Source: Candidatus Binatia bacterium (GTDB lineage Bacteria > Desulfobacterota > Binatia > Bin18). From it: a stretch of DNA of 64,000 bases. The position numbers were made by a program, and so were the translations under genes. The notes below the pieces were generated by a model that saw only the letters and a list, made by a program, of their open reading frames with translations, was not told where the DNA came from and ran no database searches. This document shows, piece by piece, positions 41,906 to 56,875 of this stretch (position 1 is the stretch's first letter; every line of letters starts with the position of its first letter). Location: contig OY761159.2 of the NCBI GenBank assembly GCA_963664395.2, forward strand, positions 3,328,001-3,392,000, in the 5' to 3' direction.

Positions 41906-41943
41906 GTTTCAATCCTTACCGACCTATTAAGGCCGGCAGCTAC
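41906..41943 (-). CRISPR. Orphan CRISPR repeat of a second family (type I-C-like)
   Basis: Minus strand GTAGCTGCCGGCCTTAATAGGTCGGTAAGGATTGAAAC, with a hairpin and ATTGAAAC end; 29/31 nt identical to 56779-56809. Confidence 0.7.
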
Positions 41944-42008
41944 TGATGAATGGTTTGACCGTATCGCAGATTCCAACTAGTCTACCACTAGCGCAAATCA
42001 CGATTCTG

Positions 42009-42110
42009 TGTAGCCGTCCGTCATTCCTGCGGAAGCAGGAATCCAGGCCCTCGCCGCCCGCTGGATGCCGGATCACGTCCGGCATGACGGAAGCCCCCTG
42101 AACGGCTACA
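42009..42110. repeat. REP/MITE-like element (CGTCATTCC..GGAATCCAG / CTGGATGCCGG..CCGGCATGACG) with 9-bp terminal inverted repeats
   Basis: TGTAGCCGT...ACGGCTACA termini and internal hairpins; partial copy near 24878-24910. Confidence 0.7.
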
Positions 42111-42155
42111 GTCTAACGTGAAACGCTCTAGTCTGAAATTCTGGAGGTATGTTGC

Positions 42156-42398
42156 ATGCCTGAAATCGGTGCTTTCGAAGCAAAAACCCACCTGCCGAAG
42201 CTGTTGCGGCGCGTTCAGGCGGGGGAGCGATTCATCATCACCAAACATAATCGGCCCGTGGCCGAGTTGATTCCTTTTCAGCCGCACGATTCCGACAAGG
42301 TACGTGCAGCGATTGCCAGGCTGAAGGCGTTTCAGGAAACGCACAGTCTGGAAGGATTATCGGTTCGCCAGATGATCGAGGAAGGCCGCAAGTACTGA
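42156..42398 (+). CDS. Phd/YefM-family antitoxin
   Basis: EAKTHL..LL..V..GE...IT.H..PVA.L.P motif; GGAGG RBS. Confidence 0.9.
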   Translation: MPEIGAFEAKTHLPKLLRRVQAGERFIITKHNRPVAELIPFQPHDSDKVRAAIARLKAFQETHSLEGLSVRQMIEEGRKY

Positions 42399-42814
42399 TG
42401 GCATTCGTCCTGGATTGCTCGGTCACCATGGCCTGGGTCTTCCCTGACGAAGCGACGGACACCACCGACTGGCTGCGAGACTCGCTGGTGGAAGGTCGGG
42501 CGTTCGTCCCCTCCCTCTGGCCAGCGGAGGTTGGCAACGTGCTGCTGACTGCCACTCGGCGGGGCCGAATCCGTGTTGACGAGTGGCCGGAGATTCGCGC
42601 GAATCTTGAGGCATTGCCTATCGAAATCGACCCAGTGACTACATCCCGGGCGTGGGGTGTGTCGCTGGAACTGGCGCAGACGCACCAGCTTTCCGTCTAC
42701 GACGCGATGTATCTGGAACTCGCCATGCGGCTGCAATTACCGCTGGCTACGCTGGACCGCGCGCTCCGTAACGCCGCGCAAGCCGTGGGCCTTGAACCGC
42801 CGCCGGTCAAGTAG
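42398..42814 (+). CDS. vapC: VapC PIN-domain toxin
   Basis: VLDCS, W..EV.N, LS.YDA.YL and LATLD motifs; overlaps the antitoxin stop. Confidence 0.9.
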   Translation: MAFVLDCSVTMAWVFPDEATDTTDWLRDSLVEGRAFVPSLWPAEVGNVLLTATRRGRIRVDEWPEIRANLEALPIEIDPVTTSRAWGVSLELAQTHQLSVYDAMYLELAMRLQLPLATLDRALRNAAQAVGLEPPPVK

Positions 42815-42822
42815 TCTTCGAC

Positions 42823-42850
42823 GGCCTATCCCCGCGTGTACGGGGGAACC
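42823..42850 (-). CRISPR. Orphan type I-E repeat 2.3 kb beyond the trailer end of the array
   Basis: GGCCTATCCCCGCGTGTACGGGGGAACC, 27/28 identical to the array consensus, same orientation. Confidence 0.9.
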
Positions 42851-42945
42851 GGTTGTTATCTCAGAAATAAGATTCGCGGGGGCGGGTACATCAGGAAACC
42901 TCTGTGCCGGGCTTGACCCCGCCCGGCTGGGGGACTTGGTAGGGA

Positions 42946-43242
42946 CTAGGCGGTGCGCCGTAACAGCTCGGCTAAGACTTCGCCTTGCCGCTCTAGCGCC
43001 TGGCCCTGCTGTGTGAACGCCTTGGTCATGGCTTCGCCTCGCCGGTCCAGGGCCTGGCCGATTTTGCCCAACGCTTCCGACTGCGCTCGGCTCTGCTCGC
43101 GTTGGCCGGCCTCCATTATGTCCAGCTGCCGGTTGCGCTCCTCTGAGGCTTTCTTCATCTGCCACAAGCCCCAGCTAATCAAGATCAGCTGCCCGAGCCC
43201 AATCCCGACCTGCGCCGATGTGGCTATGATTTGATGTTCCAT
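42946..43242 (-). CDS. Small single-TM, coiled-coil protein
   Basis: AAAGGAG RBS; TM segment then repeated GQAL(D/E)R.GE units; paralogue of 24562-24786. Confidence 0.7.
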   Translation of the reverse strand: MEHQIIATSAQVGIGLGQLILISWGLWQMKKASEERNRQLDIMEAGQREQSRAQSEALGKIGQALDRRGEAMTKAFTQQGQALERQGEVLAELLRRTA

Positions 43243-43437
43243 ATCTGCTCCTTTCCGGACAAAATTTGCGCACCCACCCAGCAAAAAAAGAGGCTCCGCA
43301 GTCAAGGGCCGACCGGAGGGAGGGGAGCGCAGCGACTGTACCCTTGACGTGGGATTCTTTTTGCTACCATCGGACAAGCAAGGCAGGAGGCGTCTTTCAT
43401 CAAAAACAGCGCCCGGAGGGCCACTTTTAGCCCCGCG

Positions 43438-44430
43438 TTAAATATGAATCCGCTCGATCTCATCAAGGGATACCTCATCCTGCAAGCGGTTGTATAATTG
43501 CGTCGTGCGGGTCGATTCATGGCCGGCGATACGCGCCGCCGTCTCCAGCGTTCCCCCCGCGCGGAGATATTCGGTAATGCCTGTTCCCCGGAAGCTGTGG
43601 GCGCAGATCTCACCAGGCAAGCCCGCGCTCTTCGCGCGGCGCTTAATCATCTTCAAGGCGTCGGTCCGTTTGATCGGGCGGCTGCTGAGCTGGTCGAGCC
43701 CCCGTTGTGTGCCAGCAGAGGGAAACAAGGGGCCTTTCGGGTCGGCCGTCAGGCCGGCGCGCTCGATGTATTCATCCGTCCAGGCCTGCGCCATATGGTG
43801 AGCGGGAATGACCAGATACTTACCGCCCTTCTCGTGCAGCCGGAAGTAGGACCGCTTGCCCTGGGTGTAATAGTCGGCCACCCGCATCGCCAGCGCCGCG
43901 CTCACCCGCGCAAAGCCGTACACCATCAGGCCCATCAACGCGCGATCCCTCAGCCCTATGAGAGTTGAAGGGTCTATACTGTCGAGCAAGCCCCGCGCTT
44001 CTTCCGCCGTTAAAATGGGGGTCTTGCCCGTTTTGATGATCTGCTTCGGGCCGCGGACCGCGCCGGCCGGATTACTGCGCATGACCTGGCCCACTACGAG
44101 CCAGTCAAAGAGCTGCCGCAAGGCGGCCGGATTTTGCTTGACTGTGGACGGCGCATAAGCCCGCCCAAGCTGCTCGATGTAGCGGGCGACATGCAAGGGC
44201 TCGACCCGGGCCAAGGTGAGGGCCTGCGCCGCGCACCAGTCCGCGAAGCGGTAGGCCGCCGTGACGTAGGCCATCCGGGTATTGGCATTGCGGATGTTCG
44301 CCCCAAAGAACTCCCAAAACCGCTGCTGCCCCTGCCTGGTGTCCGCAAAGAGCTGCGGGGGGCGTCCACCCGCAATGCGGGCCGGAATCGGCTCACTCGC
44401 CGGGCGGCGTTCCGCTATTTGCATCTTCAT
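43438..44430 (-). CDS. Tyrosine recombinase/integrase
   Basis: SAM-like N-terminus (NIRN.NTR.AY); catalytic R (FARV), K (EKGGK), HSFR, GH and TQLY all present. Confidence 0.92.
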   Translation of the reverse strand: MKMQIAERRPASEPIPARIAGGRPPQLFADTRQGQQRFWEFFGANIRNANTRMAYVTAAYRFADWCAAQALTLARVEPLHVARYIEQLGRAYAPSTVKQNPAALRQLFDWLVVGQVMRSNPAGAVRGPKQIIKTGKTPILTAEEARGLLDSIDPSTLIGLRDRALMGLMVYGFARVSAALAMRVADYYTQGKRSYFRLHEKGGKYLVIPAHHMAQAWTDEYIERAGLTADPKGPLFPSAGTQRGLDQLSSRPIKRTDALKMIKRRAKSAGLPGEICAHSFRGTGITEYLRAGGTLETAARIAGHESTRTTQLYNRLQDEVSLDEIERIHI

Positions 44431-44451
44431 CCCCGCCCTCCTGCCATAAGG

Positions 44452-44475
44452 CAGTCATAACAACGTTTATGACTG
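44452..44475. promoter_or_regulatory. Candidate tyrosine-recombinase core site
   Basis: CAGTCATAA-CAACGT-TTATGACTG, perfect 9-bp arms with a 6-bp spacer, 21 nt upstream of the integrase start. Confidence 0.65.
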
Positions 44476-44553
44476 ACAGACAAGACGCCCCCACCCCCGC
44501 CGCGTTTTTCGAGCCCTATCTTTCTCCTGTCGTCGGCCAGCACCCGACCTCAT

Positions 44554-44582
44554 TTGACGCATATACGATCTGTATATATAAT
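44554..44582 (+). promoter_or_regulatory. Sigma70 promoter of brnTA with overlapping palindromic operator
   Basis: TTGACG-N17-TATAAT with an ATATAC-N5-GTATAT inverted repeat inside; GTG start 6 nt downstream (leaderless). Confidence 0.8.
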
Positions 44583-44588
44583 TTTGGG

Positions 44589-44858
44589 GTGCAATTGACC
44601 TGGCACGAAACGAAGCGCCGCACCAACCTGACCAGCCACGGCTTAGATTTCGGGGATGCCGAGGAGGTCTTTGCTGGTCCGACGTTCACCTTCGAGGACG
44701 ACCGATTGCACTATCCTGAACAGCGGTTTGTGACACTTGGCCTCCTGAGAGGGGTGTGTGTGTCGCTTGTGCATACCGAGACGCCGGCGCGTATTCATGT
44801 CATTTCCTTCCGAAAGGCAACCAGAAATGAACAGATCATCTTCTTCCAAAACGTCTAA
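44589..44858 (+). CDS. brnT: BrnT family toxin
   Basis: W...K...N...HG.DF, Y.E.R...G and ISFRKA...E motifs. Confidence 0.88.
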   Translation: MQLTWHETKRRTNLTSHGLDFGDAEEVFAGPTFTFEDDRLHYPEQRFVTLGLLRGVCVSLVHTETPARIHVISFRKATRNEQIIFFQNV

Positions 44859-45105
44859 GACGGATTGGCCGCGGCTCAAGGCGATGCAAGAGCAAGACAT
44901 TCGGCTCACCGACGAGCATCCGGCCACCGAGGTGGACCATATTGTGCGCGGCATTGCCCGCCAGGGCTTGCGGCCCATTCCCCCCAAAACGCTGATTTCC
45001 CTGCGGGTGGATGCGGACGTGCTGGCGTGGTTCAAAGCGCAGGGCGCCGGCTATCAGACCCGGATGAACGCCGTGTTACGGGCCTTCAAGGAAGCCGCCG
45101 GCTAA
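44827..45105 (+). CDS. brnA: BrnA family antitoxin
   Basis: TDW.RL and K..ISLRVD.DVL.WFK..G.GYQTR.N.VLR motifs. Confidence 0.9.
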   Translation: MNRSSSSKTSKTDWPRLKAMQEQDIRLTDEHPATEVDHIVRGIARQGLRPIPPKTLISLRVDADVLAWFKAQGAGYQTRMNAVLRAFKEAAG

Positions 45106-45169
45106 TCCTTTCATTGTGGCTTTCACCCCCCCCCCCCCCAGCGCGCGCCTTGACGCTGTTGAGGCAGCC

Positions 45170-46125
45170 GGTCTATCCCCGCGTGTGCGGGGGAACCGTT
45201 CGGGTTAGGGTGATGCTATGCCTGTACTGGGGTCTATCCCCGCGTGTGCGGGGGAACCTAACCTCCCCAACTCTTCACTATGTGTGACTAAGGTCTATCC
45301 CCGCGTGTACGGGGGAACCGCGGCCCAACGTTTGAAGTAAAGGTGAGGCTCAGGTCTATCCCCGCGTGTACGGGGGAACCTCCTGGCTCAGCGTCGGAGG
45401 CTGGCTAACTGTCGGTCTATCCCCGCGTGTACGGGGGAACCGAGTTGCAGCCCGCTGTACGGCTCTGGCCGCAGTTGGGTCTATCCCCGCGTGTACGGGG
45501 GAACCGACCAGATTGGCGATACGGCCCTGGCCGAGTTGGGTCTATCCCCGCGTGTACGGGGGAACCTGTTAACTTTCTTCGTGGGTGAACTGGATATTGG
45601 GTCTATCCCCGCGTGTACGGGGGAACCCAAGAGCGGGGGTAGGCGTGTTGATCGTGAGGCGGTCTATCCCCGCGTGTACGGGGGAACCGGCACCACGTCT
45701 CGCCATCGCTGGCCTGCCGAGTACGGTCTATCCCCGCGTGTACGGGGGAACCATCGCCAGAAGCTCCTCCATAGAGCAGGAGGCGGGTCTATCCCCGCGT
45801 GTACGGGGGAACCCGACCACCGTTGTTCCGCCACCACCGGCTATAGGGTCTATCCCCGCGTGTACGGGGGAACCCATGTCGGTTGCTCCCTTCGTATCGG
45901 TTAGGGGGGTCTATCCCCGCGTGTACGGGGGAACCGTGGCAAGCCGAACCGGGACAAGCCGACTGGGCGGTCTATCCCCGCGTGTACGGGGGAACCCTTC
46001 CCATATTGCCCATGCCGCCCCATAGGTGCGGTCTATCCCCGCGTGTACGGGGGAACCGCAGGGGCAGATCTTTACTCCTTTGCGCTTTCGTGGTTAGGGT
46101 CTATCCCCGCGTGTACGGGGGAACC
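45170..46125 (-). CRISPR. Type I-E CRISPR array: 16 repeats of 28 nt and 15 spacers (12x33, 2x36, 1x40 nt); leader on the cas2 side
   Basis: Plus-strand GGTCTATCCCCGCGTGTACGGGGGAACC; minus strand ends GGGGATAGACC like I-E repeats; the two trailer repeats carry a GTGC variant. Confidence 0.98.
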
Positions 46126-46206
46126 TCTACTGAGTTTATTAGACTTTTTGCCGCCGTGAGTCTATTCTCCGGCATGTAGAGGGATGCCGTTCAGATTATC
46201 AAAGAG

Positions 46207-46513
46207 CTATTTGTCCTGAGTTTGGCGGGTTCGCCGCGACAAGATGAGGCCCTCTTGGTCCACTAACTCGACCGGTGGTGACCCCAGGACTCGAACGCCT
46301 TGTCCCCCCGGCTCACGTGGGTCCTGCCATGTCATGACAATAGATTGGCCGCCCAACTCCAGGAACCATTCCTCTATCACCGTCCATACCCGCTCTCTGA
46401 CGCTACGAGACAGCCTCGGGGCAGTGTACACCCCAGGGGGCAATCTCAATCATGCAAGAGGCCAAAAACCCACGGGTGCGTGGGGCAACGTCACGTGTCA
46501 CTACTACTGTCAT
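46207..46513 (-). CDS. cas2: Type I-E Cas2 with a +1 frameshift in the G5 run at 46436-46440
   Basis: MTVVVTRDVAPRTRGFLASCMIEIAP continues as GVYTAPRLSRSVRERVW after removing one base. Confidence 0.85.
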
Positions 46514-47372
46514 CGTCGTCCATCAATTTTATTATGCGATCAATCATTTTCGATATGATCTTCTTCTCTCTGAATCGGCGTCCCGCCAATCGCCGGACAT
46601 GCCGTTCGAGCGGAATATGTCCATTTTTGTGATGCTGGCTCACTGCCTCAAATGCGACCGGGATGGTCACTTCAGTCCGGTACAGGTCCGCAATATCCAG
46701 ACAAAAGGCAATAGACGCATCCTCGTGAATAAAGCCCAGAGGAGGCAGCGTTCCGGTTGCGGCCACGGCAACAATAGCCGCGGCTTCGATTGCCGTGGCC
46801 GCGTGGTTAATGGCCTGGTTCGGAGCGTCGGCAATGTCCGGGTTTTGCCGGTCATAGTGGCGGCCATGCCACGCAATGCCATACTTCTGTGCCAGCAGGC
46901 CGTAGGCCGTTTTCATCCGCGCTCCCTCGATACCGCGCAGGATGGATATGTCCTGTTCGGGCAGCACCTCACCCAAACGCCAGGCGTACATGCGCCGGGC
47001 TAGGCGAAGCCGGGAGCGCATGTCGTTCCAGAGTTTTGCCTGACGGCGCGCTCTTCTCGAATCGTTCGGTCCAAAGGGCTGGGCGCTATACATCCGCACG
47101 CCGTCTTCCCCAACCGCGACAAGGCCGGTCCCGTGGCGGGCGAGAAGACGGAACACGTCATGGCTCACGGTTGAGCCCGGCCCCAGCAGGATGAACGAGA
47201 TATTCTGAAACGGAATGGCGTAATCGCCGGCAGCCATATCCGGCGACCCGGCGGTCCGAAAATGCAACGTGCCGTCCTCCACGCTGAGATTCCCACGCGC
47301 CAACCACAGCAGCCCATGACGGTCGGCGTGCGGAATCCGCGCGGCCTCAAGCCCTAATCTTCCTTTCAACAT
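46491..47372 (-). CDS. cas1: Type I-E Cas1
   Basis: LGPGS.VSH, VGE.GVR.Y, LRGIEG.R, LGFIH and F.LDIADLY motifs. Confidence 0.95.
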   Translation of the reverse strand: MLKGRLGLEAARIPHADRHGLLWLARGNLSVEDGTLHFRTAGSPDMAAGDYAIPFQNISFILLGPGSTVSHDVFRLLARHGTGLVAVGEDGVRMYSAQPFGPNDSRRARRQAKLWNDMRSRLRLARRMYAWRLGEVLPEQDISILRGIEGARMKTAYGLLAQKYGIAWHGRHYDRQNPDIADAPNQAINHAATAIEAAAIVAVAATGTLPPLGFIHEDASIAFCLDIADLYRTEVTIPVAFEAVSQHHKNGHIPLERHVRRLAGRRFREKKIISKMIDRIIKLMDDDDSSSDT

Positions 47373-47392
47373 AGCTCACCCTGGAGTCCGTC

Positions 47393-48178
47393 TTATCCGT
47401 CTTGCATGGCGGCCAGGCGTTCGGTCGGCCCAACGCAGGCCGGCCGCAGCAGCAACATCCCGTAGCCGTAGGCGCGGTGCCGTCCAATACCCTGGGTCAG
47501 CAAGGCGGTGAAGGCAGCGGCATCAGTAATGGTCAGGACGCCCCGCATGACCGCGTCCGGCCCTTCGCTGTGACGGGCACGGAGCTTACGCACGGCGCGG
47601 GTACGCTGGAATGAGCGTAACTCCGCCGACTCCAACCGCGCGCCGCCTCTGCGGGCAAACTGATCGGCCAACCACTCACGATACACTTCTTCACGACTGC
47701 ACGGCATCCCGTTCTTCGGATACTGCATTGCCTTGAGTTGGAAGGCGTCCCATTCCCTACCGGGGTGGCCTTCCGCGTTGCGACTGCGGCGCACGATGGG
47801 GCGAATCCGTGTCTCAAAGCCGAGCTGCTTGTCTGACCGCCATTCAGTCGGCATTGGTTTGCTGTTGATCGTATGACCGGGGATGATTTTTGCCTGCAAG
47901 GGATCGGCGTATATGCCAGCCGCGTCACGCAAAGAGTCGGCCTCGGCGTATCCGTATCCGTACCATACGCCACATACCGCGCCGCGCGGCACAATCAGAC
48001 GAAAGGGTTTGGGTGCCAGGTCGCCGAAGCATTCGGTGAGCAGACAGTGCATGGCGTGGTCCGCGTCCTGGAGGCGCTTACCGCCCATCCAGCGCTGAAA
48101 ATCGCGTACCCTGACATCGGCGCGGATCAGTTGAAGCGGAGCCGCAGGCGAATCGGTTGATGTGGCAGTATCCATCAT
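47393..48178 (-). CDS. cas6: Cas6e (Cse3/CasE)
   Basis: D.D.A.H, G.LTI.D...F..LL and the GIGRHRAYGYGML G-loop. Confidence 0.93.
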   Translation of the reverse strand: MMDTATSTDSPAAPLQLIRADVRVRDFQRWMGGKRLQDADHAMHCLLTECFGDLAPKPFRLIVPRGAVCGVWYGYGYAEADSLRDAAGIYADPLQAKIIPGHTINSKPMPTEWRSDKQLGFETRIRPIVRRSRNAEGHPGREWDAFQLKAMQYPKNGMPCSREEVYREWLADQFARRGGARLESAELRSFQRTRAVRKLRARHSEGPDAVMRGVLTITDAAAFTALLTQGIGRHRAYGYGMLLLRPACVGPTERLAAMQDG

Positions 48179-48179
48179 T

Positions 48180-48926
48180 TTACTCGTCCTTTGCCGTGGA
48201 AAACCGGTCGTGTTCGATAGCGCCTTCACACACCAGTCGCCCGCCGCCGTGCAGCCCGGACATCCAGTTGCGCTGGTCGGTGAGCATATAGCTGCGACTG
48301 GGAGTGATCTCCGCTCTGCCTTCGCCGTCCGGCCAGAGCGCTCGTATGGCGACCGCAGGCGGTATATCAGTAGCCAGAGGCGTGGCCAGCAGTGCTGCCA
48401 GGGCCGTGTCGCCCTGACTGAAACCGCCGAACAGGGTGCCCGACGGCAGGCAGGGCTTGCGTCCGATGAACAGCGGTCGGGCCGGTTCCTGCAAGGCACC
48501 GGCCAGGTCGTCCAGCGTCGGGGGCTCATCAGCCGGCTCCAGACGCAGTGCAACGGTGACGCGCATATCCGCGAAGTAGTCGCGATAGCGCAGATGGGGG
48601 GCGTCATATGTGGCCGCTCCACCGGCGCGGCCTTCGGGGACTCCCCGCGTGGTCCAGCCTTGGTCTTTTTTACTCAACTGTGCCGTCTGAAAATCGGTGA
48701 GCCTCACACCGGTCGCCGGCTCGCGGTCAATACGTGCGGCGAATACCAGGCGGTCTTGTAGGCGTTGATGCAGGTCCCGTTCGATCCGTCGCCAACCCAG
48801 AGCGTTGGCCAACAGCCCGGTCAGCATGGAGACGGACGGGAACCAGCGGATGACGCCGTAATTGTCAATGGTTTCCCCGCCAAAGGCCATGAGTGGGGAT
48901 TCGAGAGACAGAATCAGATGGCGCAT
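48180..48926 (-). CDS. cas5: Cas5e (CasD)
   Basis: L..PLMAFG, P..S.LTGLLANALG, DFQT, R.Y.AD and LFIGRK.C motifs. Confidence 0.95.
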   Translation of the reverse strand: MRHLILSLESPLMAFGGETIDNYGVIRWFPSVSMLTGLLANALGWRRIERDLHQRLQDRLVFAARIDREPATGVRLTDFQTAQLSKKDQGWTTRGVPEGRAGGAATYDAPHLRYRDYFADMRVTVALRLEPADEPPTLDDLAGALQEPARPLFIGRKPCLPSGTLFGGFSQGDTALAALLATPLATDIPPAVAIRALWPDGEGRAEITPSRSYMLTDQRNWMSGLHGGGRLVCEGAIEHDRFSTAKDE

Positions 48927-48928
48927 CT

Positions 48929-50147
48929 CTATGCCTCGCCGCTCAGCACTGCCTGTGACGCCCATTCTGCCAAATCGTCCAGACCGAGGCGTTCGGCGTT
49001 GGGAATGTCGCAGTCCTCAACCGACAGCACCCGTCGGGCTTCCTTTGCTCCATAGGCGACGTCCAGTTTACTCAGGTATTGGGATAGGGCGTTGGTGGCA
49101 TCGGATACCTGCGCCTTGGTCGGGTTGCGAAACGTATTGGCCAGGCTGCGCGGCTGACGTATTCCAGCCTCAATGAGCATCAGGTCGGCGCAGGAATAAG
49201 GCGCGGTGGAACCGAGTTTGGCACCGGGCGATACGGTGGCAATCAGATGAACGAGGTGGTCAACCACCTTACCGGCGAGGTCTTTATCCGCGCTCAGGTT
49301 GGACACCAGCCCCGGTACGTCCACCACGACATAGCCGTAGAACAGCCCCGCAGTCAGTTCCATGTCTCCGATGTGTGCGGCGCCGGCGTCTTCGTCAGCC
49401 TGCTGCAAGTCGTCTACCACGGAAAAGTAATCGCTCTCGCTTTCTTCCTGATGCACGGTGAAGGCGTGGGCGACATGGATAGCGGCGTCAATATTGGCTG
49501 CGGGGTCGGAGGTGACCATCCGTCCGAACAGCGCCCCGACAAGCCCACCGGGCAGACTCGTGCTTTTGCGGAATGCCTCGAAATTCGGGATTTCATCACC
49601 GAACATCTCAGTAGCGGCATTTCTGGCATCTCTCCGCGGTCGGTCTTGGCTTTTCCAGTGGCGGTTTTAATTTGTTCGTCAGTCACCAACAAGCCAGTAG
49701 CCACTTTCGTGCGGCAATTTCGTCCTCGGAGTGTTTCTCACAGATCGCTTTGGCTTTCTCACGCATAGATATTCCACTTCGGGCAGACCCAACAGCAAGG
49801 GTTGGCGACCCTTTTCCGTGTCACCTGTCTTGCCGTACACTCCTATGTTGAAAGCCTTTTCAACTGCTTCAAGCACATCGCCAGAAGTCTCTCCGGCATT
49901 GCGCAATGGCTGCATGACCGTGCGGTCAACAACATTTCGAGAGCGGAACGCATCCGGCCCAATGTGAGTGATGAGAAAATTCGTCCTCTGCCATGCGCCA
50001 GTGCCGCTTGAGGCACTGCGACGAGATACGGGTCCGTACCGCGTCACCGAAGGGCAGGCGCTTGGCCAGGCCGCTGTCGTCGCGGTTCAGCAGCGCGGCG
50101 GGATAGGAATGAAGGGTGTGGATTTGCAGAAAACGTGGTGTGGTCAT
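48929..50147 (-). CDS. cas7: Cas7e (Cse4/CasC) interrupted by about four frameshifts between ~49630 and ~49980
   Basis: IH.L..YP..LLNRDD.G.AK, RISSQCLKR and ALFGRM, VAHAFTVH, DYF.VVDD motifs lie in different frames. Confidence 0.88.
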
Positions 50148-50203
50148 GGTGAAAACTCCTTGGTGCTTTTGTCTTCTTGTCGTCCCTATGGGCGAAATTG
50201 TCT

Positions 50204-51154
50204 TTACTCGTCGGTCGAGGAAGAACGGTGCTGCTCCGCCCGGTAATACTCACGGGCAATTTTTATTCGAGCCTCATCAGCCCGCTCTTCGTTGTATCCG
50301 TCGTTGAGGATGAACCAAGCCATTTCCCGCCAGTTGAAGGCGCAGCCTTTGCTCGCCAGCATCCGAAACAGCCGTGCCAGCAGACGATGGAGCGTTGGTC
50401 CTCTGGCGGCAAGTAACGTCGCTAGTCGGTCCTCGCTGTAAAAGGCCGTTCCCGGTTGGTCTTGATTGCCCTCATATAATACCCGCCCAACCGGCCTTCT
50501 TGGATTATGAGCCAAGCCAGCAGTATGGGACATCAGGGCTATGCCGTGTGTGATAAGCCCCCATTTTTTAATATCCGGGTTTCTGGACATTCCGCGTTGG
50601 CTCATGAGCTTCCAGAACACAGCGCCGCCAGGATTGCTCGGGTCCATGCGTCGGAGGCTGGCTTTTTCTCCTGTTGTCATTTCCTTGGATTCAATCGACT
50701 CGATGGTGTTCGCCATAACAACACCAAAGTTGGCAGGTATCGGACTGCTGGGCAGTCCAGGCAAGAGTTTGGTCACGCTGTTGTGTCCAGCAGTGCCATT
50801 TTCGATAATGTCGTACAGTTCGCGTCGGTGATCTGAGTTATCACCACGCCAAACCTTTGTAGTGATACCCATCTGTTTGAACGCTTCCAGCCAGTCTTCC
50901 TGTCCTTCTCCGAATGGGCTGTCAGCCTCGCGCTTTAACTCTGCTACCAGCATTTCAAACAGACCTGACTCTGGGTGCTGCCGAAACATAACGAGGTCGG
51001 GAAATCCCCTGCCGCGCACTATGCGAAAACCATCAACATGGAACGGTCTCCATCCATGATGAATAGCTTCTTCATGCACCTCTTTGTTAAAGAACCACTC
51101 CCTATCCGTAACAGCGGAATCTGGAGCTTTGTTGACTGGTTGTTGCTCTGACAT
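50204..51154 (-). CDS. cas11: Cas11/Cse2 fused to an N-terminal VRR-NUC PD-(D/E)XK nuclease domain
   Basis: C-terminal half has A.LRR, FW.L, G..L, SE.RL..LL, W..MA and IAREYY; N-terminal half has GFPDL, ELK and Q..WL; canonical position between cas8e and cas7. Confidence 0.85.
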   Translation of the reverse strand: MSEQQPVNKAPDSAVTDREWFFNKEVHEEAIHHGWRPFHVDGFRIVRGRGFPDLVMFRQHPESGLFEMLVAELKREADSPFGEGQEDWLEAFKQMGITTKVWRGDNSDHRRELYDIIENGTAGHNSVTKLLPGLPSSPIPANFGVVMANTIESIESKEMTTGEKASLRRMDPSNPGGAVFWKLMSQRGMSRNPDIKKWGLITHGIALMSHTAGLAHNPRRPVGRVLYEGNQDQPGTAFYSEDRLATLLAARGPTLHRLLARLFRMLASKGCAFNWREMAWFILNDGYNEERADEARIKIAREYYRAEQHRSSSTDE

Positions 51155-51156
51155 AC

Positions 51157-52746
51157 TTAACTCTCCTTCTGTCCTTCATCGAAAAGAAACGGGAGCCCCT
51201 TCGCGCCGCATATCCGACCCTCAAACAGTCCCTCAGCGTTGACACGGGCGCGGTAGCGGTGAATGGCCGGGCAGGGCAGGGAATCCTCGGCAGCGTGCAA
51301 AGTCCGACGAGCGAGGTCAACTATGCCGTCTTTGCCGTTCATTAACCACTCGTTGCGAACACGCTTCCGCTCTGCCTCATCGTCAACCTCGAACTCATCC
51401 TGTAGGTCGTTAAAAAAGCGGGCGTCTACGATTTCGTCTAACTTGTTCAGCCAGGGATGGGCTAGGGCACGATGTTCAGGACTCACCTTATCGCCGTCGC
51501 CTCGGGCGGCGAACACCTGGATGGCGTGGCTGAGAATGCGCTGAACGGTGCCGACCTGTTCAATGCGCTGTTGAGCAATGTCGCCGAGTTCGGCAGTACC
51601 TCCCACTCTTCCGAAAACCTGTATTGTTTTGGAGCGTAGTGGGATGACTCGTTCGTGATAGCCTTCGGTCATGCCTTGTTTATTCGTATTGTTCTTTGTA
51701 CTTCGCGCTACTAGTTGCATTGAGGTGTTTGAATCACGGTCTTCTGAAGACCTTGATAACAATGGAGGCCACTCCCAATCAGCGGACGTGAGATAGGTCG
51801 TTATGCGTTTATAGCTAAAACCTGCCGGTCCGATGTTCAGGGCTTTGCCTTCTTTTTTGTTGATCGGAGTCCAAGGGTCTCCAGTCCGTCCGTTAATATT
51901 TTTTGCCTCAATACGACTGGATTCAGAGTTTGCCCTGACGCCGTACAGATTTCCCTTTTCGTTTGTTTGAAGCCGGACGCGGCGGCAGATTTCTATGTAG
52001 AAGGGGTCCAGTTGGTCAAGTCGTATTCCTTCTTTCTTGTTTCCGTCCCACGGTATGGCCCACAATAAATCCGCCCCACCATCGGTCATCGGATAATCGG
52101 CCAAAATTGTCTGGCGATGTTTCTGCAAGACTTTAATATCTCTGAGAACGTGAGCGCCAGTGCGTCCGGATGGCGCGAGGCTAAAAGCGGGCCGCCCGGA
52201 ATATGCGCTTCTGATTCTCGAAATCGGATAATTGCCTCTACCATTCTGGAGTGACATCGTTTGCAGCGTAATCAGCGCGAAGAGCCATTCATCAGGAACG
52301 GCCTGCGTCGCCACAGCGGCTTTCAGGTCGTGATTCTTGGAGGTGACGAGCATGTCCAGTTCGTCGGGTGTGGCGACAGTGCTCTTGTAATCCTTCTCGC
52401 GCTCTGCGGACGAGGCCGGGGGCTGCATGAAGGCGGGTTTGGTGATGTCGTCAACCACAAGCTGCCAGGGCTCGTCGTTGGGATAGTCAGGTGTCAGCGC
52501 GCGAATAATACGCAGCCACTCCGTGGCATCTTTAGGTGGCGTCAGTCCAGCCCGTCCCGGTGCATCGCCATTGACACCCAACTGAACCAGAAAGGCGTGC
52601 CAGGCGTGGCGCTGATGGGGCCGGAGCGCAGGAAAGGCGTCTATTTTGTCATCTATCAGTGCGGCGTAGGTTTCGGGCAGGGAGGCGGGATATGTACTTC
52701 CGGCCGCGTTAATCCGAATCAAGGGGTCAGTGAGAATGTTGAGCAT
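51157..52746 (-). CDS. cas8e: Cas8e (Cse1/CasA)
   Basis: N.L..PLI, F.ALRPHQ.H.W.AFL.QL, PAF.QP, LVT.KNHD, IEICRR.RL and GDPW.P motifs. Confidence 0.9.
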   Translation of the reverse strand: MLNILTDPLIRINAAGSTYPASLPETYAALIDDKIDAFPALRPHQRHAWHAFLVQLGVNGDAPGRAGLTPPKDATEWLRIIRALTPDYPNDEPWQLVVDDITKPAFMQPPASSAEREKDYKSTVATPDELDMLVTSKNHDLKAAVATQAVPDEWLFALITLQTMSLQNGRGNYPISRIRSAYSGRPAFSLAPSGRTGAHVLRDIKVLQKHRQTILADYPMTDGGADLLWAIPWDGNKKEGIRLDQLDPFYIEICRRVRLQTNEKGNLYGVRANSESSRIEAKNINGRTGDPWTPINKKEGKALNIGPAGFSYKRITTYLTSADWEWPPLLSRSSEDRDSNTSMQLVARSTKNNTNKQGMTEGYHERVIPLRSKTIQVFGRVGGTAELGDIAQQRIEQVGTVQRILSHAIQVFAARGDGDKVSPEHRALAHPWLNKLDEIVDARFFNDLQDEFEVDDEAERKRVRNEWLMNGKDGIVDLARRTLHAAEDSLPCPAIHRYRARVNAEGLFEGRICGAKGLPFLFDEGQKES

Positions 52747-53246
52747 ATCTTCTCCGAGCTACTGATGCAGAGCGAGGTTCGTCCAAATCAACGGATCATT
52801 TAAGGCGTTTAACGTGTGAAAATCTCCTTTCGGGTTTTTTACCCGACTATGGTGAGGCATGTCAGGATGGTGCTCGGAAATTTGGGTAGTGTCTCAGTTT
52901 GAATCCTTTGGATTTCGCTCTCGTATGGCGGACCTTGACTCCGCCTGCCGCAGTGTTTTGGCCTCGCTGATAAAGGGATACTGTGCATAATTTGCCGCCC
53001 TTGTCCCTACCAAGATTAGTAGGAAGTGAAGAAAAATGACGAGGGCGTCGAAAAAAGTGGGCAGGCAATCAGCGGCGAGGAGAAGCAATTTCAAAGTGAG
53101 ACACTACCGAAATTTGAAATTCTATCCTTGTGCATAGCGTCCGCACCTCCAATGAACACGGTGATTCAGCGAGCGCAGCTTGTACAACGGCTGTATTTGG
53201 TATTGCGATTCTGACCAGAGCGGTCTTTTGAGAAATGGGACGGACT

Positions 53247-53480
53247 ATGCAAGCAGACTATGCTGGAATTATCACGGTCGAACCGGGCAAGCGCGGCGGG
53301 AAACCCTGCATTCGTGGCCTGCGCATCACGGTCTACGATATTCTGGAGTATCTGGCGTCCGGGATGACCGAGTCTGAAATTCTGGCCGATTTTCCCGACC
53401 TGACCCGCGAGGATATCCGGGCGTGTCTGGCATTTGCCGCTGAGCGGGAGCGTCGCTTGGTAGCCATTCCGCCAGAATGA
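53247..53480 (+). CDS. DUF433 antitoxin-like protein, followed by a 4-codon remnant of a partner gene
   Basis: P.K.GGKPCIRG.RI.V.DIL..LA.G....IL...P.L..EDI motif; ATGA overlap gives MRLL*. Confidence 0.88.
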   Translation: MQADYAGIITVEPGKRGGKPCIRGLRITVYDILEYLASGMTESEILADFPDLTREDIRACLAFAAERERRLVAIPPE

Positions 53481-53520
53481 GACTGTTGTAGCCGGCGAAA
53501 CAGCGCGGCGAGCAGGCTGC

Positions 53521-56199
53521 CTATACCCGGCGCAGTCCCAGCCGGTCGTACCGGAAACGGGACTCGCCCATACGGAATGTAAAACCGCTGTCCTCCAGGT
53601 CGGGAACGACCGGCTTGTCGTCGGTCGCCTCGTCGGACAGACGGGGGGCCAGATGATGGGGGATGGTCAACTGCCCAATGGCTTCTGCCCCGAACGGGCT
53701 TGGCGCTGGTGGGTCCAACTCCACTTCAATGCCCTCGTCACCCAGCCGAGTGCGTATGCGTTCTTCGTCACTACCGAATACAACCTCACGGTTGTCATCG
53801 CCAAAAAAGGATTTGTCGTAACGAACGAGGGCACTCCGCGCGGTCAGGGCTCCGGCCAGGGTTGCCCCGGTCATACGATTGGCGTGGATTTGCCAGGCGT
53901 CGCCCAACTCGTCGGTTATGGCTTTCAGGGCGTCGGGGTGGGTCGTTCGCTCCACCAGTTCCCGGTTCATTGCCGGGATACGCCATTCCGGGTGGTGGAG
54001 AATCAGCCGGCGCGTCGCCTCAAGCACACGCAGATCCTCGTAGACGAACCCGTGCGGTCCCAGCCCGTTCCGACCGGGACCTTTGGATAATAAGGGTGAG
54101 AGGTCATCCCTCTCCGGCATCAGCACGATACACGCGGGCGTCGCGTAGCCTTCGGGCCGGTCAGCCCGTTGGTGGCGGTGCAGCCGACCGATGCGCTGGA
54201 GCAGTACGTCCATCGGGCACAAGTCGGTGATTAACAGGTCCGCGTCTATGTCCAGCGATTGCTCCAAGGTCTGCGTCCCCACAATAATGCATCCGCCGGA
54301 CGGACGGTCTTTACCGATCTGATCTTCCACCGCTTTGTCCAGCACGAGTCGGTCTTCACGGGCGAACCTGCCGTGGTGGAGGGTGAGAATGCCGCGACAG
54401 GCGTAGAGCAGGTGGCTTTCGTCCTGGGCAATCATTGCTTCCACCGTCTGTTGGGTGTCAATGGCGTATTGCACGGTGTTCCGTACCACCAGAACCTTGG
54501 CTCCGGCACGGGTCGCGCGCAGAGCGCGTTGGGCTACCTGGGTGAAATCTCCCATGTCCGAGATGGCCTCAACCCGAACCGTTTTCTCCCTCCCGTTTTC
54601 GTTCACGGCGATGGTGGTTTTGCCGGTACGCGTCGAGACCGCAGGGTAGGGGGTCTCGATGGCGTCGTTCAACGACGGTGGAGTATTGGTAGCAGAGGAA
54701 GATTTTTCGGACAGCCAGCGAGAGCGTGCCGCAGAGCCGAGCGTGGCAGACATCAGGAGGGCGTAGCCGCCAGTCCCGATATGGACACGTAGTAAGGCTT
54801 CGAGAATGACGCGCATATAGGGGTCGGAGGCGTGCACCTCGTCCACTACCAGAAGATTGCGCGACAGGCAGGCGGCGCGCATATGGGCGTGCTTGACCTG
54901 GAGGGCGGCCAGCATGGCTTGGTCAACCGTACCGACGGCGATTTGGGCTGCCAGGTAGCGCTTGGCGCTCTCGGCTGCCCAGCGGCGTTTTTCGGTGAGG
55001 ATGTCGGGATGATCGTCCCACCACACCTCGTATTTCGGCAGATGCTTTCCTGTGGCGGCTCCGGCACGGACATAGCCGGGGACTGCCAGCACGGGCTCCG
55101 GGCCGACTCCTTCGGGGAACAGCTTGTCAATGAAGCGTGTGATGCGTCTGTGCATCTGGCTGGCTGCCGCACGGGTAGGCAAGGCAAAATACAGTCCGTC
55201 TACCCGTCCGTCTTGATACATATGGGCAAAGCGCCAGAGCGCGGCCTCGGTTTTCCCAGAGCCGGTTTCGGACTCGATGATAACCAGGCGCTCGTCCAGC
55301 GGAACCGCTATCGCCGAGTGCTGAATGGGGTTGGGCGTTGCGTTGGGGATGCCGAATAGGGCGTCGAAATTCGGCAGGGCGGGCAGTACGTGAAAAGCGC
55401 TCCGCTGGCTTTCGATATTCAACCCGATTTCCAAGAGCGCATTGTGGGCGTTGTGCCGTGCGGTCTGCATGTAGTCGTCACGAGGCTCGTCGCAGAATGG
55501 GAAGTGGGTTTCGTCAGAACCAATCCAGTCGGCCAGCATGCACAGGCCCAGAAACATATGCTGAAAAGCGGGAGTGGACGGCAGAGGAAGCGCACGAAGT
55601 GTCCAGGCTGCAGGAAACCAGTCTCGCACCAGCCGCCCGATGCGCTCTACACCACGCCGGGGGTGCAGTGCACCGAAGGAGCGCCAGATGGCGGGATTCT
55701 TGGACCGACTATCCTGCATGTTAAGTGGCCGACCGTGGTGAGACAGCGCAGCCACGAACAAGGCGCAGACCGTCTCTCCGCCGCAATCGTCCCAGGTCAG
55801 AAAATCCTCCCACCAGCCCAGCGTACTGAAGAACCAGTCCGCGGTTTCGGTGTCATCGTAGTTCAGAACCGGTGTCAGGTCGGCGATATGTCCGGCAGGG
55901 CGTGGGTGGCGCGTATCTGTGGGAAAGTCGGATTCCTGCCATATCCGTGTCTGAAAGCCGATGTTGACTTTGCCTATGTCGTGCATAGCTGCCAAGACTG
56001 CCAGCCGTGCTGCAATCACAGGGTCAATGTCGTCCAGCTTGCCAGCCCGTGCTAGTCGTTGTCGGATAGTCGGCTGTGCCAGCAGAGCCTCAAAGCAGGC
56101 CCCCACATCAGCCATATGGTGTTCCAGCAGATGGATACGTTGTGGGTTTTCGCGGTCGGATTTTGCCCAGAAGACCTGGGTATATGCTGCGGGTAGCAT
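53521..56199 (-). CDS. cas3: Cas3 HD nuclease-helicase, apparently intact
   Basis: WAKS, H..DV, HDIGK, HHG, ADWIGS, ETGSGKT, DEVH, SAT and QRIGRLHRH motifs. Confidence 0.95.
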   Translation of the reverse strand: MLPAAYTQVFWAKSDRENPQRIHLLEHHMADVGACFEALLAQPTIRQRLARAGKLDDIDPVIAARLAVLAAMHDIGKVNIGFQTRIWQESDFPTDTRHPRPAGHIADLTPVLNYDDTETADWFFSTLGWWEDFLTWDDCGGETVCALFVAALSHHGRPLNMQDSRSKNPAIWRSFGALHPRRGVERIGRLVRDWFPAAWTLRALPLPSTPAFQHMFLGLCMLADWIGSDETHFPFCDEPRDDYMQTARHNAHNALLEIGLNIESQRSAFHVLPALPNFDALFGIPNATPNPIQHSAIAVPLDERLVIIESETGSGKTEAALWRFAHMYQDGRVDGLYFALPTRAAASQMHRRITRFIDKLFPEGVGPEPVLAVPGYVRAGAATGKHLPKYEVWWDDHPDILTEKRRWAAESAKRYLAAQIAVGTVDQAMLAALQVKHAHMRAACLSRNLLVVDEVHASDPYMRVILEALLRVHIGTGGYALLMSATLGSAARSRWLSEKSSSATNTPPSLNDAIETPYPAVSTRTGKTTIAVNENGREKTVRVEAISDMGDFTQVAQRALRATRAGAKVLVVRNTVQYAIDTQQTVEAMIAQDESHLLYACRGILTLHHGRFAREDRLVLDKAVEDQIGKDRPSGGCIIVGTQTLEQSLDIDADLLITDLCPMDVLLQRIGRLHRHQRADRPEGYATPACIVLMPERDDLSPLLSKGPGRNGLGPHGFVYEDLRVLEATRRLILHHPEWRIPAMNRELVERTTHPDALKAITDELGDAWQIHANRMTGATLAGALTARSALVRYDKSFFGDDNREVVFGSDEERIRTRLGDEGIEVELDPPAPSPFGAEAIGQLTIPHHLAPRLSDEATDDKPVVPDLEDSGFTFRMGESRFRYDRLGLRRV

Positions 56200-56337
56200 G
56201 TCCTCTCTCGATAAAAGCGCCGACTGCTGGAAACACGCAGGTATAGCAATCGACATTGAGGGGTCAAGCTCGCCTGCCCCGCCGCTCAGCTCTTCCTGCT
56301 CAAATACGAATGCGTTGACGCAGAGCCGTGAGGAGAC

Positions 56338-56373
56338 CCCTCACCCTAGCCCTCTCCCCCAAGGGGAGAGGGG
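56338..56373. repeat. REP-like palindrome CCCTCACCCTAGCCCTCTCCCC-AA-GGGGAGAGGG
   Basis: Hairpin; related copy at ~61615-61645. Confidence 0.65.
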
Positions 56374-56445
56374 ATAATCAGAACAGGAACGAGGGAGACA
56401 TATCAAACGGCCGCCGGACAGTCGTGAACCCGAGCCGTCGGCGTA

Positions 56446-56766
56446 TCAGGCTCCCGGCGGCCGGTAGGGTACGCTTTTGCCGACCGCTTCGTCCACGGTT
56501 TCCGGTGTAACGAGGACGGTGACGCCGATGTTGAGGGCGCCGGCGGCACCGATCGTCAAGGACACGGCCGTTGCCGTGGCGTCGTCTGGAAGATCGGCAA
56601 TGATGTACAGGTCGGGCTCCCCGAAGGCGTAGTACAGCACCTCTACGCTGCCGCCCATGCCCTCAATGGTCGCGGTTAAGGCCTCCCGCCGGCGCGTGCC
56701 GCCTTCCTTCAGCAAACCGGTCAGTCCCGACTGCGTGTACGTTGCGTGAAACATGTATTTGCCCAT
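56446..56766 (-). CDS. GYD domain protein
   Basis: YT..G..GL, GG.VE..YYAFG..D motifs; GGAGG RBS. Confidence 0.85.
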   Translation of the reverse strand: MGKYMFHATYTQSGLTGLLKEGGTRRREALTATIEGMGGSVEVLYYAFGEPDLYIIADLPDDATATAVSLTIGAAGALNIGVTVLVTPETVDEAVGKSVPYRPPGA

Positions 56767-56778
56767 TGGCTTCCCTCC

Positions 56779-56875
56779 GTTTCAATCCTCACCGACCTGT
56801 TAAGGCCGGTGTTTCCGCTGAGTGGATTATATGCCAGTCGGATCAAGTGTTTCAATCCTCATCGGCCCGTTGAGG
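56779..56875 (-). CRISPR. Relic mini-array of type I-C-like repeats (37-nt repeat, 33-nt spacer, truncated repeat)
   Basis: GTTTCAATCCTCACCGACCTGTTAAGGCCGGTG at 56779 and GTTTCAATCCTCATCGGCCCGTTGAGG at 56849; 70-nt period. Confidence 0.75.

Follow-up and report, generated by a model that had tools for sequence, protein, structure and literature searches.

Orphan type I-C CRISPR repeats in a Candidatus Binatia defence hot spot, and the probable co-option of one repeat pair upstream of a GYD-domain gene

Introduction

Why should a type I-E CRISPR-Cas locus lie between repeats of another CRISPR family? In the 64,000-nt stretch of Candidatus Binatia DNA analysed here (the window), a sequence-only reading had noticed such repeats on both sides of an I-E block, and had proposed either that the I-E system was inserted into or replaced an older type I-C locus, or that the repeats act as attL and attR of a mobile CRISPR island. 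Defence-island integration hot spots occur between conserved core genes, and the interval considered here is framed by an amidase gene and a gene of the major facilitator superfamily (MFS).

Results

On the plus strand, a 31-nt motif occurs at 41906-41936 and again, in the same orientation and 14,873 nt away, at 56779-56809, the two being identical at 29 of 31 positions, while a third, degenerate copy at 56849-56879 is 74% identical and lies 70 nt from the second; position, orientation, identity and spacing (about 14.9 kb) are as the sequence-only reading had given them. The motif found matches in none of 100 dinucleotide-preserving shuffles. The full repeat unit is 37 nt long, with its functional orientation on the minus strand, and the hairpin and CRISPR-like end formerly ascribed to that strand are borne out by a 3' end of GAGGATTGAAAC and by a 9-bp hairpin predicted in copy 2. 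A GC-rich hairpin of 8-9 bp and an 11-nt 3' tail, AGGAUUGAAAC, are features of type I-C repeats. The Rfam model CRISPR-DR9 (RF01322) matched 56779-56815(-) with 37 bits (E 5e-7 in a 401-nt scan) and 41906-41943(-) with 25.2 bits, neither reaching the gathering score of 45 bits. A covariance model built from the repeats of the genus scored the copies at 56779, 41906, 56849 and 61720 with 59.5, 47.9, 17.6 and 20.6 bits, respectively; the first two are rows of the model's own alignment and hence fit it by construction. Covariation in the hairpin (24 repeat variants, 92.7% of cells paired) was not significant, the observed values being reached by 58-102 of 500 shuffles, and thus speaks neither for nor against the hairpin. 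Copies 1 and 2 are full length and copies 3 and 4 degenerate, as is the single further copy in the rest of the 5.04-Mb assembly (C1:2819601-2819637). A dispersed REP-type repeat, entertained earlier, is ruled out by there being only five copies in 5.04 Mb.

Table 1. Features of the locus, in window coordinates.
Feature	Position	Strand	Remarks
Copy 1, solitary type I-C (DR9-like) repeat	41906..41942	-	58 nt upstream of the ATG of an MFS/Atg22-like gene
vapB (Phd/YefM-type) and vapC (PIN) toxin-antitoxin pair	42156..42814	+	Pfam, synteny
Solitary I-E repeat	42824..42851	-	bounds the I-E block on the right; 8 nt from the vapC stop
Cassette between I-E repeats	42852..45170	.	Pfam and sequence
Small membrane-protein-like ORF	42946..43242	-	in cassette
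Tyrosine integrase	43438..44430	-	in cassette
brnT	44469..44858	+	in cassette
brnA	44758..45105	+	in cassette
I-E CRISPR array	45171..46127	-	16 repeats, 61-68 nt spacing; repeat search
Type I-E cas operon	46207..56256	-	cas3, cas8e, cse2, cas7e (disrupted), cas5e, cas6e, cas1, cas2; Pfam
GYD-domain gene	56446..56766	-	106 aa; Pfam PF08734, E 4.5e-23
Copy 2, type I-C repeat	56779..56815	-	downstream repeat of the mini-array; in the inferred GYD 5' leader
Mini-array 'spacer'	56816..56848	-	33 nt; holds TATAAT -10 box, 56831-56826
Copy 3, degenerate type I-C repeat	56849..56882	-	5' stem half lost; tail gives TTGAAA -35 box, 56855-56850
Copy 4, degenerate type I-C repeat	61720..61756	+	covariance model; missed by the sequence-only reading

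The resemblance to type I-C noted earlier is confirmed by these Rfam matches and by the congener G020, in which 148 repeats of identical type, with a period of ~72 nt, directly follow a full I-C operon (cas3-cas5c-cas8c-cas7c-cas4-cas1-cas2; Pfam Csd1 E 1.7e-195, Cas7 E 1.7e-108, plus Cas5d, Cas4, Cas1, Cas2 and Cas3) between the same amidase and MFS genes as in the window. The last G020 repeat lies ~60 nt from the MFS start, compared with 58 nt for copy 1. The repeats are true type I-C repeats. A metatranscriptome contig in X17, in which two such repeats flank an unrelated 37-nt spacer, is a real I-C array in some relative. Strong Cas8c matches were found in three of 28 congeners (G018, G020, G024), along with a weak partial match in G001 (E 7e-8). 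The cognate system is not in the window's own assembly (95.9% complete), where tblastn with all seven G020 I-C proteins (E<=1e-3) found no I-C cas gene, and the I-C repeat copies there are therefore orphans. A Pfam Csd1 search likewise gave no match in the window's genome, but gave none in control genomes either. Cas1 searches returned nothing beyond the I-E locus and one other, at a distance of 113 kb, whose 28-nt repeat is a different one. A functional array would need at least three regularly spaced repeats, unique spacers and cognate cas genes, and a single pair of I-C copies 70 nt apart, together with solitary ones and no I-C cas genes, does not make one.

Pfam agrees with the gene content formerly assigned to the bracket, namely vapBC, an integrase, brnTA, the I-E array, the cas operon with cas3, and GYD, and with metabolic genes outside it (MFS/ABC on one side, amidase/Rieske/OPT on the other). 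The I-E operon matches Cas3_HD, Cse2, CT1975 (Cas7e), Cas5, Cas6e, Cas1 and the I-E type of Cas2; the 529-aa ORF at the cas8e position has no Pfam match, and cas7e carries a frame change and two in-frame stops, which may reflect decay or assembly error. The block is 81-86% identical at the DNA level to that of G002, and this homology breaks off at cas3 on one side (56251) and at the last repeat of the array on the other (45169). The junctions of the block lie ~190 nt past the stop codon of GYD and 8 nt from that of vapC. A REP-like element is found at 56337-56376. Pairs of vapBC occur at this locus also in G001, G005 and G022, and vapB alone in G019 and G026. GYD and vapBC are residents of the locus and not cargo of the island.

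Across species, whose locus flanks are ~88-94% identical, the interval is occupied by a full I-C system, by an I-E system to one or the other side of GYD, by type I restriction-modification or by toxin-antitoxin pairs, or is almost empty. In G002, G005, G019 and G022 the I-E array is found beyond the repeat pair and GYD, on the side opposite to that in the window; the G002 cas block is orthologous to that of the window and the G019 block partly so. A type I restriction-modification system fills the slot in G001. Both bracketing repeats are present in G021, 1.4 kb apart and with no I-E island, and G003 likewise has the repeat pair, GYD and MFS with no island; these two relatives lacking the island retain the repeat. 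Of the two forms of the site sought earlier in relatives, the intact array is found in G020, whereas a site with one lone repeat between amidase and MFS is absent from the 12 congeners in which the locus was examined. The amidase-MFS interval is a hot spot for defence systems, with a decayed I-C array as its foundation. In a tree of the flanking genes, G020 is nested among I-E bearers, and the tree neither separates the locus architectures nor picks out the ancestral one. The earlier proposal stands insofar as the I-E block occupies a former I-C site; I-C may or may not have preceded I-E there.

The individual copies have fared differently among relatives. Orthologues of copy 1 form the terminal repeat of the I-C arrays of G020 and G016 and a solitary copy in G021; in G002, G003, G005, G019 and G022 copy 1 is cut down to its first 15 nt, and in two relatives it is wholly lost. 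The degenerate 5' half of copy 3 (CCCTCC or CCCCCC replacing the stem) also borders the amidase in G001 and G003, whose counterparts have 1-2 more differences in the 3' part. Copy 4 ends 3 nt upstream of the ATG of a 684-aa hydantoinase/oxoprolinase gene (61760-63814, plus strand), and is kept in G001, G020, G021, G024 and G026 and cleanly missing from G003.

GYD itself is 95-99% identical in 14 of 27 congeners. Two repeat-like units around one spacer were seen in 11 genomes, and this repeat-spacer-repeat unit is linked to GYD in 11 of the 15 congeners that bear the gene; the other four have no I-C repeat upstream of GYD, which evidently does not need it. In the window, copy 2 is followed by GGAGGGAAGCCA and then by the GYD ATG, and this gap of only 12 nt limits any GYD promoter to the repeat itself or to the sequence upstream of it. 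A promoter scan of 56200-57100 returned one sigma-70-like site, TTGAAA-18-TATAAT, with 11/12 matches (0.3 expected). A promoter-like site of the form TTGAAA-18 nt-TA(T/C)AAT is present in nine of the 11 genomes in which the unit precedes GYD; G004 and G024 have other spacers, and no such site by the same criteria. The spacer is homologous in nine genomes. That of the window has strongly diverged from that of G003, with both hexamers and their spacing retained, and weakly resembles the native GYD promoter of G007 and G023, which is free of DR9. Simple shared descent among species this similar in their flanks could account for the conservation of the spacer. Four metatranscriptome runs contained contigs of relatives (90-95% identity), mostly on the amidase and the REP-like element and uninformative as to starts, ends and strand, as is one 201-nt contig spanning 56569-56769.

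Discussion

Together, these findings are probably best explained by orphan remnants of a former I-C array between amidase and MFS, of which the unit upstream of GYD has been co-opted. A type I-C array would once have occupied this interval in the genus, and its cas genes would since have been lost from the window's genome, leaving the terminal repeat as a decaying relic beside MFS and a repeat-spacer-repeat unit upstream of GYD, while the I-E block lies between GYD and vapC, its junctions having no relation to the I-C repeats. The GYD-linked unit would have been kept through co-option, its putative promoter being composed of TTGAAA from the tail of the upstream repeat and TATAAT in the 'spacer', 18 nt apart, while the hairpin of the downstream repeat is predicted to stand at the 5' end of the GYD mRNA, just ahead of the Shine-Dalgarno sequence. 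From the sequence, we infer that one repeat pair could thus serve as both promoter and leader of GYD. As to how the cas genes were lost, an orphan three-repeat array at the same locus in G016 has one spacer that matches I-C cas1 of G018 (30/35), G024 (30/35) and G020 (27/35), flanked by TTC in G018 and G020 and by CTC in G024, which suggests self-targeting as a possible route. The mini-array spacers of G000, G003, G021 and G024 had only chance-level matches of 9-11 nt to the I-C loci of G018, G020 and G024.

The readings that give the repeats a role in mobility or in RNA-guided regulation fare poorly. Direct repeats of like orientation that enclose a tyrosine integrase are what would be expected of attL and attR of a mobile I-E island using I-C repeats, perhaps by means of that integrase. 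However, the I-E block ends at cas3 and at the array and solitary I-E repeat, away from the I-C repeats; the integrase cassette sits between I-E repeats and does not adjoin an I-C repeat; and the relatives with the repeats and no island (G021, G003), or with the I-E block outside the bracket (G002, G005, G019, G022), contradict it further, so that we give this part of the sequence-only reading almost no credence. It is also very unlikely that the unit is a present or past regulatory mini-array of the CreA/crlRNA kind, which with an I-C Cascade would repress GYD or a nearby defence gene. Its two repeat-like sequences around one spacer, its conservation across species and its place within a CRISPR locus are shared with the described mini-arrays and solitary repeat units that yield crRNA-like RNAs and include I-C units controlling neighbouring defence genes (Shmakov et al. 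2023, PMC10120712; 'CRISPR-Cas supervises diverse anti-phage defense systems', bioRxiv 10.1101/2024.12.27.630466). Moreover, 11 of the first 12 nt of the G021 spacer agree with the native GYD leader of G023, although 33 of 2000 shuffles equalled this and the match is preceded by ATC, not TTC. Unlike those units, the one described here has no cognate Cascade encoded in its genome; it occurs in 11 congeners, whereas strong Cas8c matches occur in only three of 28; and for the window's spacer neither the window nor contig C1 contains a TTC-flanked match of >=12 nt starting in the seed, and no partial target with a PAM was found. The role proposed here is that of cis-acting DNA and RNA, as promoter and leader, rather than of a guide RNA.

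A more serious competitor, though still an unlikely one, holds that the three copies are functionless fragments of the decayed array, near gene starts by accident of where the array ended. The visible decay of copy 1 in relatives, the loss of half the stem of copy 3, the non-significant covariation and the absence of the repeat from four of 15 GYD genes are all compatible with this neutral account. It sits less easily with the retention of a promoter-like site in nine of 11 genomes despite spacer divergence, with the lack of space for another promoter between repeat and ATG in the window, and with the family-wide placement of solitary I-C repeats, of which eight of 21 end <=20 nt before a same-strand ORF start, as against one of 21 in the antisense control. 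The latter proximity to start codons points to co-option.

Co-option may, more tentatively, extend beyond GYD. For at least eight unrelated host genes (GYD, the hydantoinase, an rlmE-like methyltransferase, a secreted protein, an amidohydrolase, two luciferase-like oxidoreductases and one gene in a second genus), a solitary I-C repeat lies 0-20 nt ahead of the start, and several of these arrangements are conserved across species. It is conceivable, if somewhat doubtful, that solitary I-C repeats have been domesticated across the family as gene-expression modules, in which the tail GAGGAUUGAAAC would provide an ideally spaced Shine-Dalgarno sequence and, at the DNA level, a TTGAAA -35 box, with the hairpin capping the mRNA at its 5' end.

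The remnants bear comparison with other CRISPR components found apart from their systems. According to the review PMC8616872, the orphan I-F (CRISPR4) arrays of Escherichia coli remain where I-F cas genes were lost and I-E kept, and carry anti-cas spacers (Almendros et al. 2016). A small array lacking its cas genes beside another type I system is common to both cases, as is an anti-cas spacer, carried here by the array of G016 and directed at I-C cas1 (flank TTC or CTC). The present case differs from that description in that what is left is a solitary repeat plus a two-repeat unit, in that no cas gene is matched by the spacer in the window, and in that the other CRISPR system lies physically within the remains of the old array. 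RNA anti-CRISPRs (Racrs), described as solitary repeat units in phages and plasmids (PMC10651486), are likewise isolated repeats apart from a cognate array; by that description they differ from the repeats studied here, which are chromosomal and orthologous across species at fixed sites beside housekeeping genes, in a genome with no I-C system to inhibit. The interval resembles defence hot spots in general in holding I-C, I-E, type I restriction-modification or toxin-antitoxin genes according to the congener, and differs from them in being marked by fixed remnants of an old array, part of which is retained with a resident gene.

Conclusion

At this single hot spot, one CRISPR subtype has been replaced by another, and by restriction-modification, in an order that the flank tree does not settle, and the repeats of the old array remain as datable scars. 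Within the literature searched, as represented by the portions consulted, we found no description of CRISPR repeats as a source of promoters or ribosome-binding sites for ordinary genes. If the co-option proposed upstream of GYD is correct, then CRISPR repeats are raw material for just such elements; and if solitary I-C repeats have been domesticated more widely in the family, then strains with an I-C Cas5c could cut these mRNAs at the repeat, tying the expression of host genes to CRISPR state.

Repeat copies and their cognate type I-C system

The 31-nt motif on which the sequence-only reading was built is real, with plus-strand copies at 41906-41936 and 56779-56809 that agree at 29 of 31 positions, lie 14,873 nt apart, and were matched in 0 of 100 shuffles. 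A further copy (74% identical) occupies 56849-56879 and, in minus-strand orientation, all copies form a hairpin followed by GAGGATTGAAAC. The Rfam model CRISPR-DR9 scored 37 bits against 56779-56815(-) and 25 bits against 41906-41943(-), both below the gathering score of 45 bits, though with small E-values. A covariance model made from 24 repeat variants of the genus gave 59.5, 47.9, and 17.6 bits to the copies at 56779, 41906, and 56849, respectively, the high values of the first two arising by construction, as both are rows in the model's own alignment. Beyond the window, the 5.04-Mb assembly holds one extra degenerate copy (C1:2819601-2819637), in low-GC DNA that looks mobile-like; the motif is therefore not a dispersed REP-type repeat, an alternative that the first reading had itself raised and that this count rules out.

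Coordinates of features in and around the defence locus of the window
Feature	Position	Strand	Remark
I-C repeat, copy 1	41906-41942	-	beside MFS
Solitary I-E repeat	42824-42851		
brnTA-integrase-small-ORF cassette	42852-45170		between I-E repeats
98-aa ORF	42946-43242	-	hydrophobic N-terminus
Last repeat of I-E array	45171-45199		
cas7e	48929-50177	-	appears broken
REP-like element	56337-56376		GC-rich, palindromic
GYD	56446-56766	-	Pfam PF08734
I-C repeat, copy 2	56779-56815	-	
I-C repeat, copy 3	56849-56882	-	degenerate
REP-like element	61600-61650		GC-rich, palindromic
I-C repeat, fourth copy	61720-61756	+	degenerate; genus covariance model, 20.6 bits
Hydantoinase/oxoprolinase gene	61760-63814	+	Pfam

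Of 55 genomes in the family screened by pattern, 22 (the window's own among them) contain the repeat, and within the genus 19 of the 27 others do. The congener G020 carries 148 copies on a single strand with a period of ~72 nt, compared with 12 in G024, 6 in G018, 3 in G016, and 1-5 in most others. Its array is preceded by a seven-gene operon (Cas3, Cas5d, Csd1/Cas8c, Cas7/Csd2, Cas4, Cas1, and Cas2 by Pfam; E-values of 1.7e-195 for Csd1/Cas8c and 1.7e-108 for Cas7/Csd2), which is type I-C, and the earlier assignment of the repeat to that subtype was thus largely right. The search for a cognate system succeeded in G020, with a full operon and array, but tblastn with the seven G020 proteins (E<=1e-3) found no I-C genes in the window's assembly, which is 95.9% complete. 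Strong Cas8c matches occur in three of 28 genus genomes (G018, G020, and G024), and G001 has a single weak, partial match (E 7e-8). Cas1 genes of the window's genome are confined to the I-E operon and one locus 113 kb distant (G000:C1:3493000-3506000, stretch L008), where Cas1 accompanies a 28-nt repeat of I-F-like appearance.

Architecture of the locus among relatives

Gene orders were established from tblastn of window proteins and repeat scans over 40-kb stretches.

Gene orders at the locus, read in the direction of GYD
Genome	Order
G020	amidase, I-C cas, I-C array, MFS
G016	three I-C repeats, MFS
G021	amidase, repeat-spacer-repeat, GYD, unknown ORF 0.85 kb, I-C repeat, MFS
G003	amidase, repeat-spacer-repeat, GYD, 0.67 kb, MFS
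G001	amidase, repeat pair, GYD, type I R-M, vapBC, MFS
G002	amidase, I-E cas, I-E array, repeat pair, GYD, MFS
G019	amidase, I-E cas, I-E array, repeat pair, GYD, vapB, MFS
G022	amidase, 18 kb unannotated, I-E repeat, repeat pair, GYD, vapBC, MFS
G005	I-E array (contig begins within), repeat pair, GYD, vapBC, MFS
G026	like G019, except I-E reduced to one degenerate terminal repeat
Window	amidase, repeat pair, GYD, I-E cas, I-E array, brnTA-integrase cassette, solitary I-E repeat, vapBC, I-C repeat, MFS

The sequence-only reading offered two accounts of the bracketing repeats, an older I-C locus or attL/attR sites of a mobile I-E island, and the locus facts support the former. The I-C operon and array of G020 sit between genes orthologous to the amidase and MFS genes in the window, with the terminal repeat ending about 60 nt ahead of the MFS start, compared with 58 nt for copy 1. 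MFS-adjacent repeats in G021, G016, and G020 are orthologues of copy 1, which is reduced to its first 15 nt in G002, G003, G005, G019, and G022, and lost altogether in G001 and G026; the older-locus account therefore largely holds. The att account is contradicted at the edges of the island and by the relatives. The window's I-E block begins about 190 nt past the GYD stop, within REP-like sequence common to G003 and G019, and closes with an I-E repeat that 8 nt separate from the vapC stop, with no I-C repeat at either junction. As its DNA is 81-86% identical to the G002 block, against 87% for the flanks, the two blocks look orthologous, yet the 440-bp unit of repeat pair and GYD has the window's block on one side and the G002 block on the other. 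Such junctions and gene orders speak against att sites, and we reject that reading as wrong.

The architectures are not separated in a tree of the flanking 4.9-kb MFS-ABC stretch, where G022 is the partner of G001 and G020 is nested inside; the tree therefore neither gives an order of events nor tells which of I-C and I-E is older, and recombination between species is likely. One possible hint to the route of I-C gene loss comes from the three-repeat orphan I-C array of G016 (stretch L022), beside MFS, whose first spacer matches I-C cas1 of G018 (30/35, flank TTC), G024 (30/35, flank CTC), and G020 (27/35, flank TTC), TTC being the I-C PAM. No match of this kind to I-C cas genes was seen for the spacer in the window.

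Several further observations concern the contents of the locus. In G001 (L042 1488-9724), a type I R-M system (HsdM, HsdS, HsdR, YgjP-like, and NYN) fills the slot between GYD and vapC that I-E takes in the window. The cassette within 42824-45199 is flanked by I-E repeats, as though inserted into the array. The first ~73 residues of cas7e lie in one frame and the remainder in another, with two in-frame stops, and the gene appears broken, either because the I-E effector is decaying or because the assembly is in error. Against window 46207-56256, Cas1 and Cas2 of G019 (L049/L050) are 95% and 92% identical, and its Cas3, Cas8e, Cas7e, Cas5e, and Cas6e merely 35-56%; adaptation and effector modules seem to have been exchanged separately. 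The two REP-like elements have the form CCCCTCTCCCC...GGGGAGAGGG, and the one after GYD is widely repeated, as many unrelated metatranscriptome contigs cover it.

Repeats upstream of genes

GYD is present in 15 of 28 genus genomes at 95-100% identity. In 11 of these an I-C repeat lies 12-50 nt upstream of the GYD ATG, always with a second repeat-like copy 70-99 nt upstream (11/11; that of G021 scores just 17.7 bits), and in the other four (G006, G007, G011, and G023) the covariance model found no I-C repeat upstream in the stretch fetched. In the window, copy 2 is followed by GGAGGGAAGCCA and then the GYD ATG. A promoter scan of 56200-57100 returned one sigma-70-like site (TTGAAA-18 nt-TATAAT, 11/12 matches; 0.3 sites expected), with TTGAAA formed by the tail of copy 3 and TATAAT inside the spacer. 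Nine of the 11 unit-bearing genomes have this site under identical criteria, and it is absent from G004 and G024, both of which have other spacers. The spacer resembles the native GYD promoter region, free of I-C repeats, of G007 (16/21 positions; 103/2000 shuffles as good) and G023 (11/12; 33/2000), which weakly suggests that it may be promoter DNA rather than sequence captured from an invader. The leader RNA, whose start position we infer, is predicted to fold into the repeat hairpin and a second helix in which the repeat tail pairs with GYD codons 5-7 (-27.3 kcal/mol, z -3.8); the metatranscriptome runs, being contigs of relatives, have no bearing on that start.

The fourth copy ends 3 nt ahead of the hydantoinase/oxoprolinase ATG, and is kept in G001, G020, G021, G024, and G026 and cleanly missing in G003. 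When family pattern-scan matches and those of the window were grouped by orthology into 21 non-array sites, a same-strand ORF of at least 90 aa started within 20 nt of the repeat 3' end at eight, compared with one of 21 in the antisense control, ORF starts being uncertain in such GC-rich DNA. Starts followed the repeat at +12 (GYD), +3 (hydantoinase), +0 (an rlmE-like gene in G006, G021, and G023), +7/+11 (a secreted protein in G008 and G007), +1 (a gene in a second genus), +0 (an amidohydrolase), and +17 and +20 (two luciferase-like oxidoreductase genes; the +20 site is in L066). The repeat tail contains GAGGA 7 nt from the end of the repeat, which, judged by position alone, would give good spacing for a putative Shine-Dalgarno element. 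Leaving aside the window's GYD and hydantoinase sites and the site in L066, these repeats lie 0-17 nt before start codons of unrelated genes in stretches L026, L028, L037, L017, L067, L032, L073, and L072 of relatives.

Homologues of the 98-aa ORF (53-56% identical) occur in G011, G021, and G026 (L068, L071, and L074), and in each genome a solitary I-C repeat lies within a few hundred nt. All three homologues have an I-F-type repeat or array nearby, and that of G026 is flanked by I-E repeats. G026 also carries twice a ~240-nt unit with one I-C repeat and one I-F-like repeat; in the first copy, at least, an I-E-variant repeat follows after another ~130 nt. The arrangement may represent an array-trailer module or a battery of decoy repeats.

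Relation to known systems

The closest known case comes from E. coli strains that retain I-E alongside an orphan I-F array; such arrays carry anti-cas spacers, which the anti-cas1 spacer of G016 parallels (PMC8616872). In form the repeat pair is like regulatory mini-arrays or solitary repeat units (PMC10120712; bioRxiv 10.1101/2024.12.27.630466), but here it lacks two of their defining features, a cognate Cascade and a PAM-flanked partial target. RNA anti-CRISPRs are solitary repeats on mobile elements (PMC10651486), whereas the window copies reside on the chromosome and have orthologues in other species. The window repeats are orphans left behind as CRISPR subtypes turned over at a hot spot, a kind already known; they may also have been reused as modules for promoters and ribosome binding, and this is the aspect that deserves a bench test.
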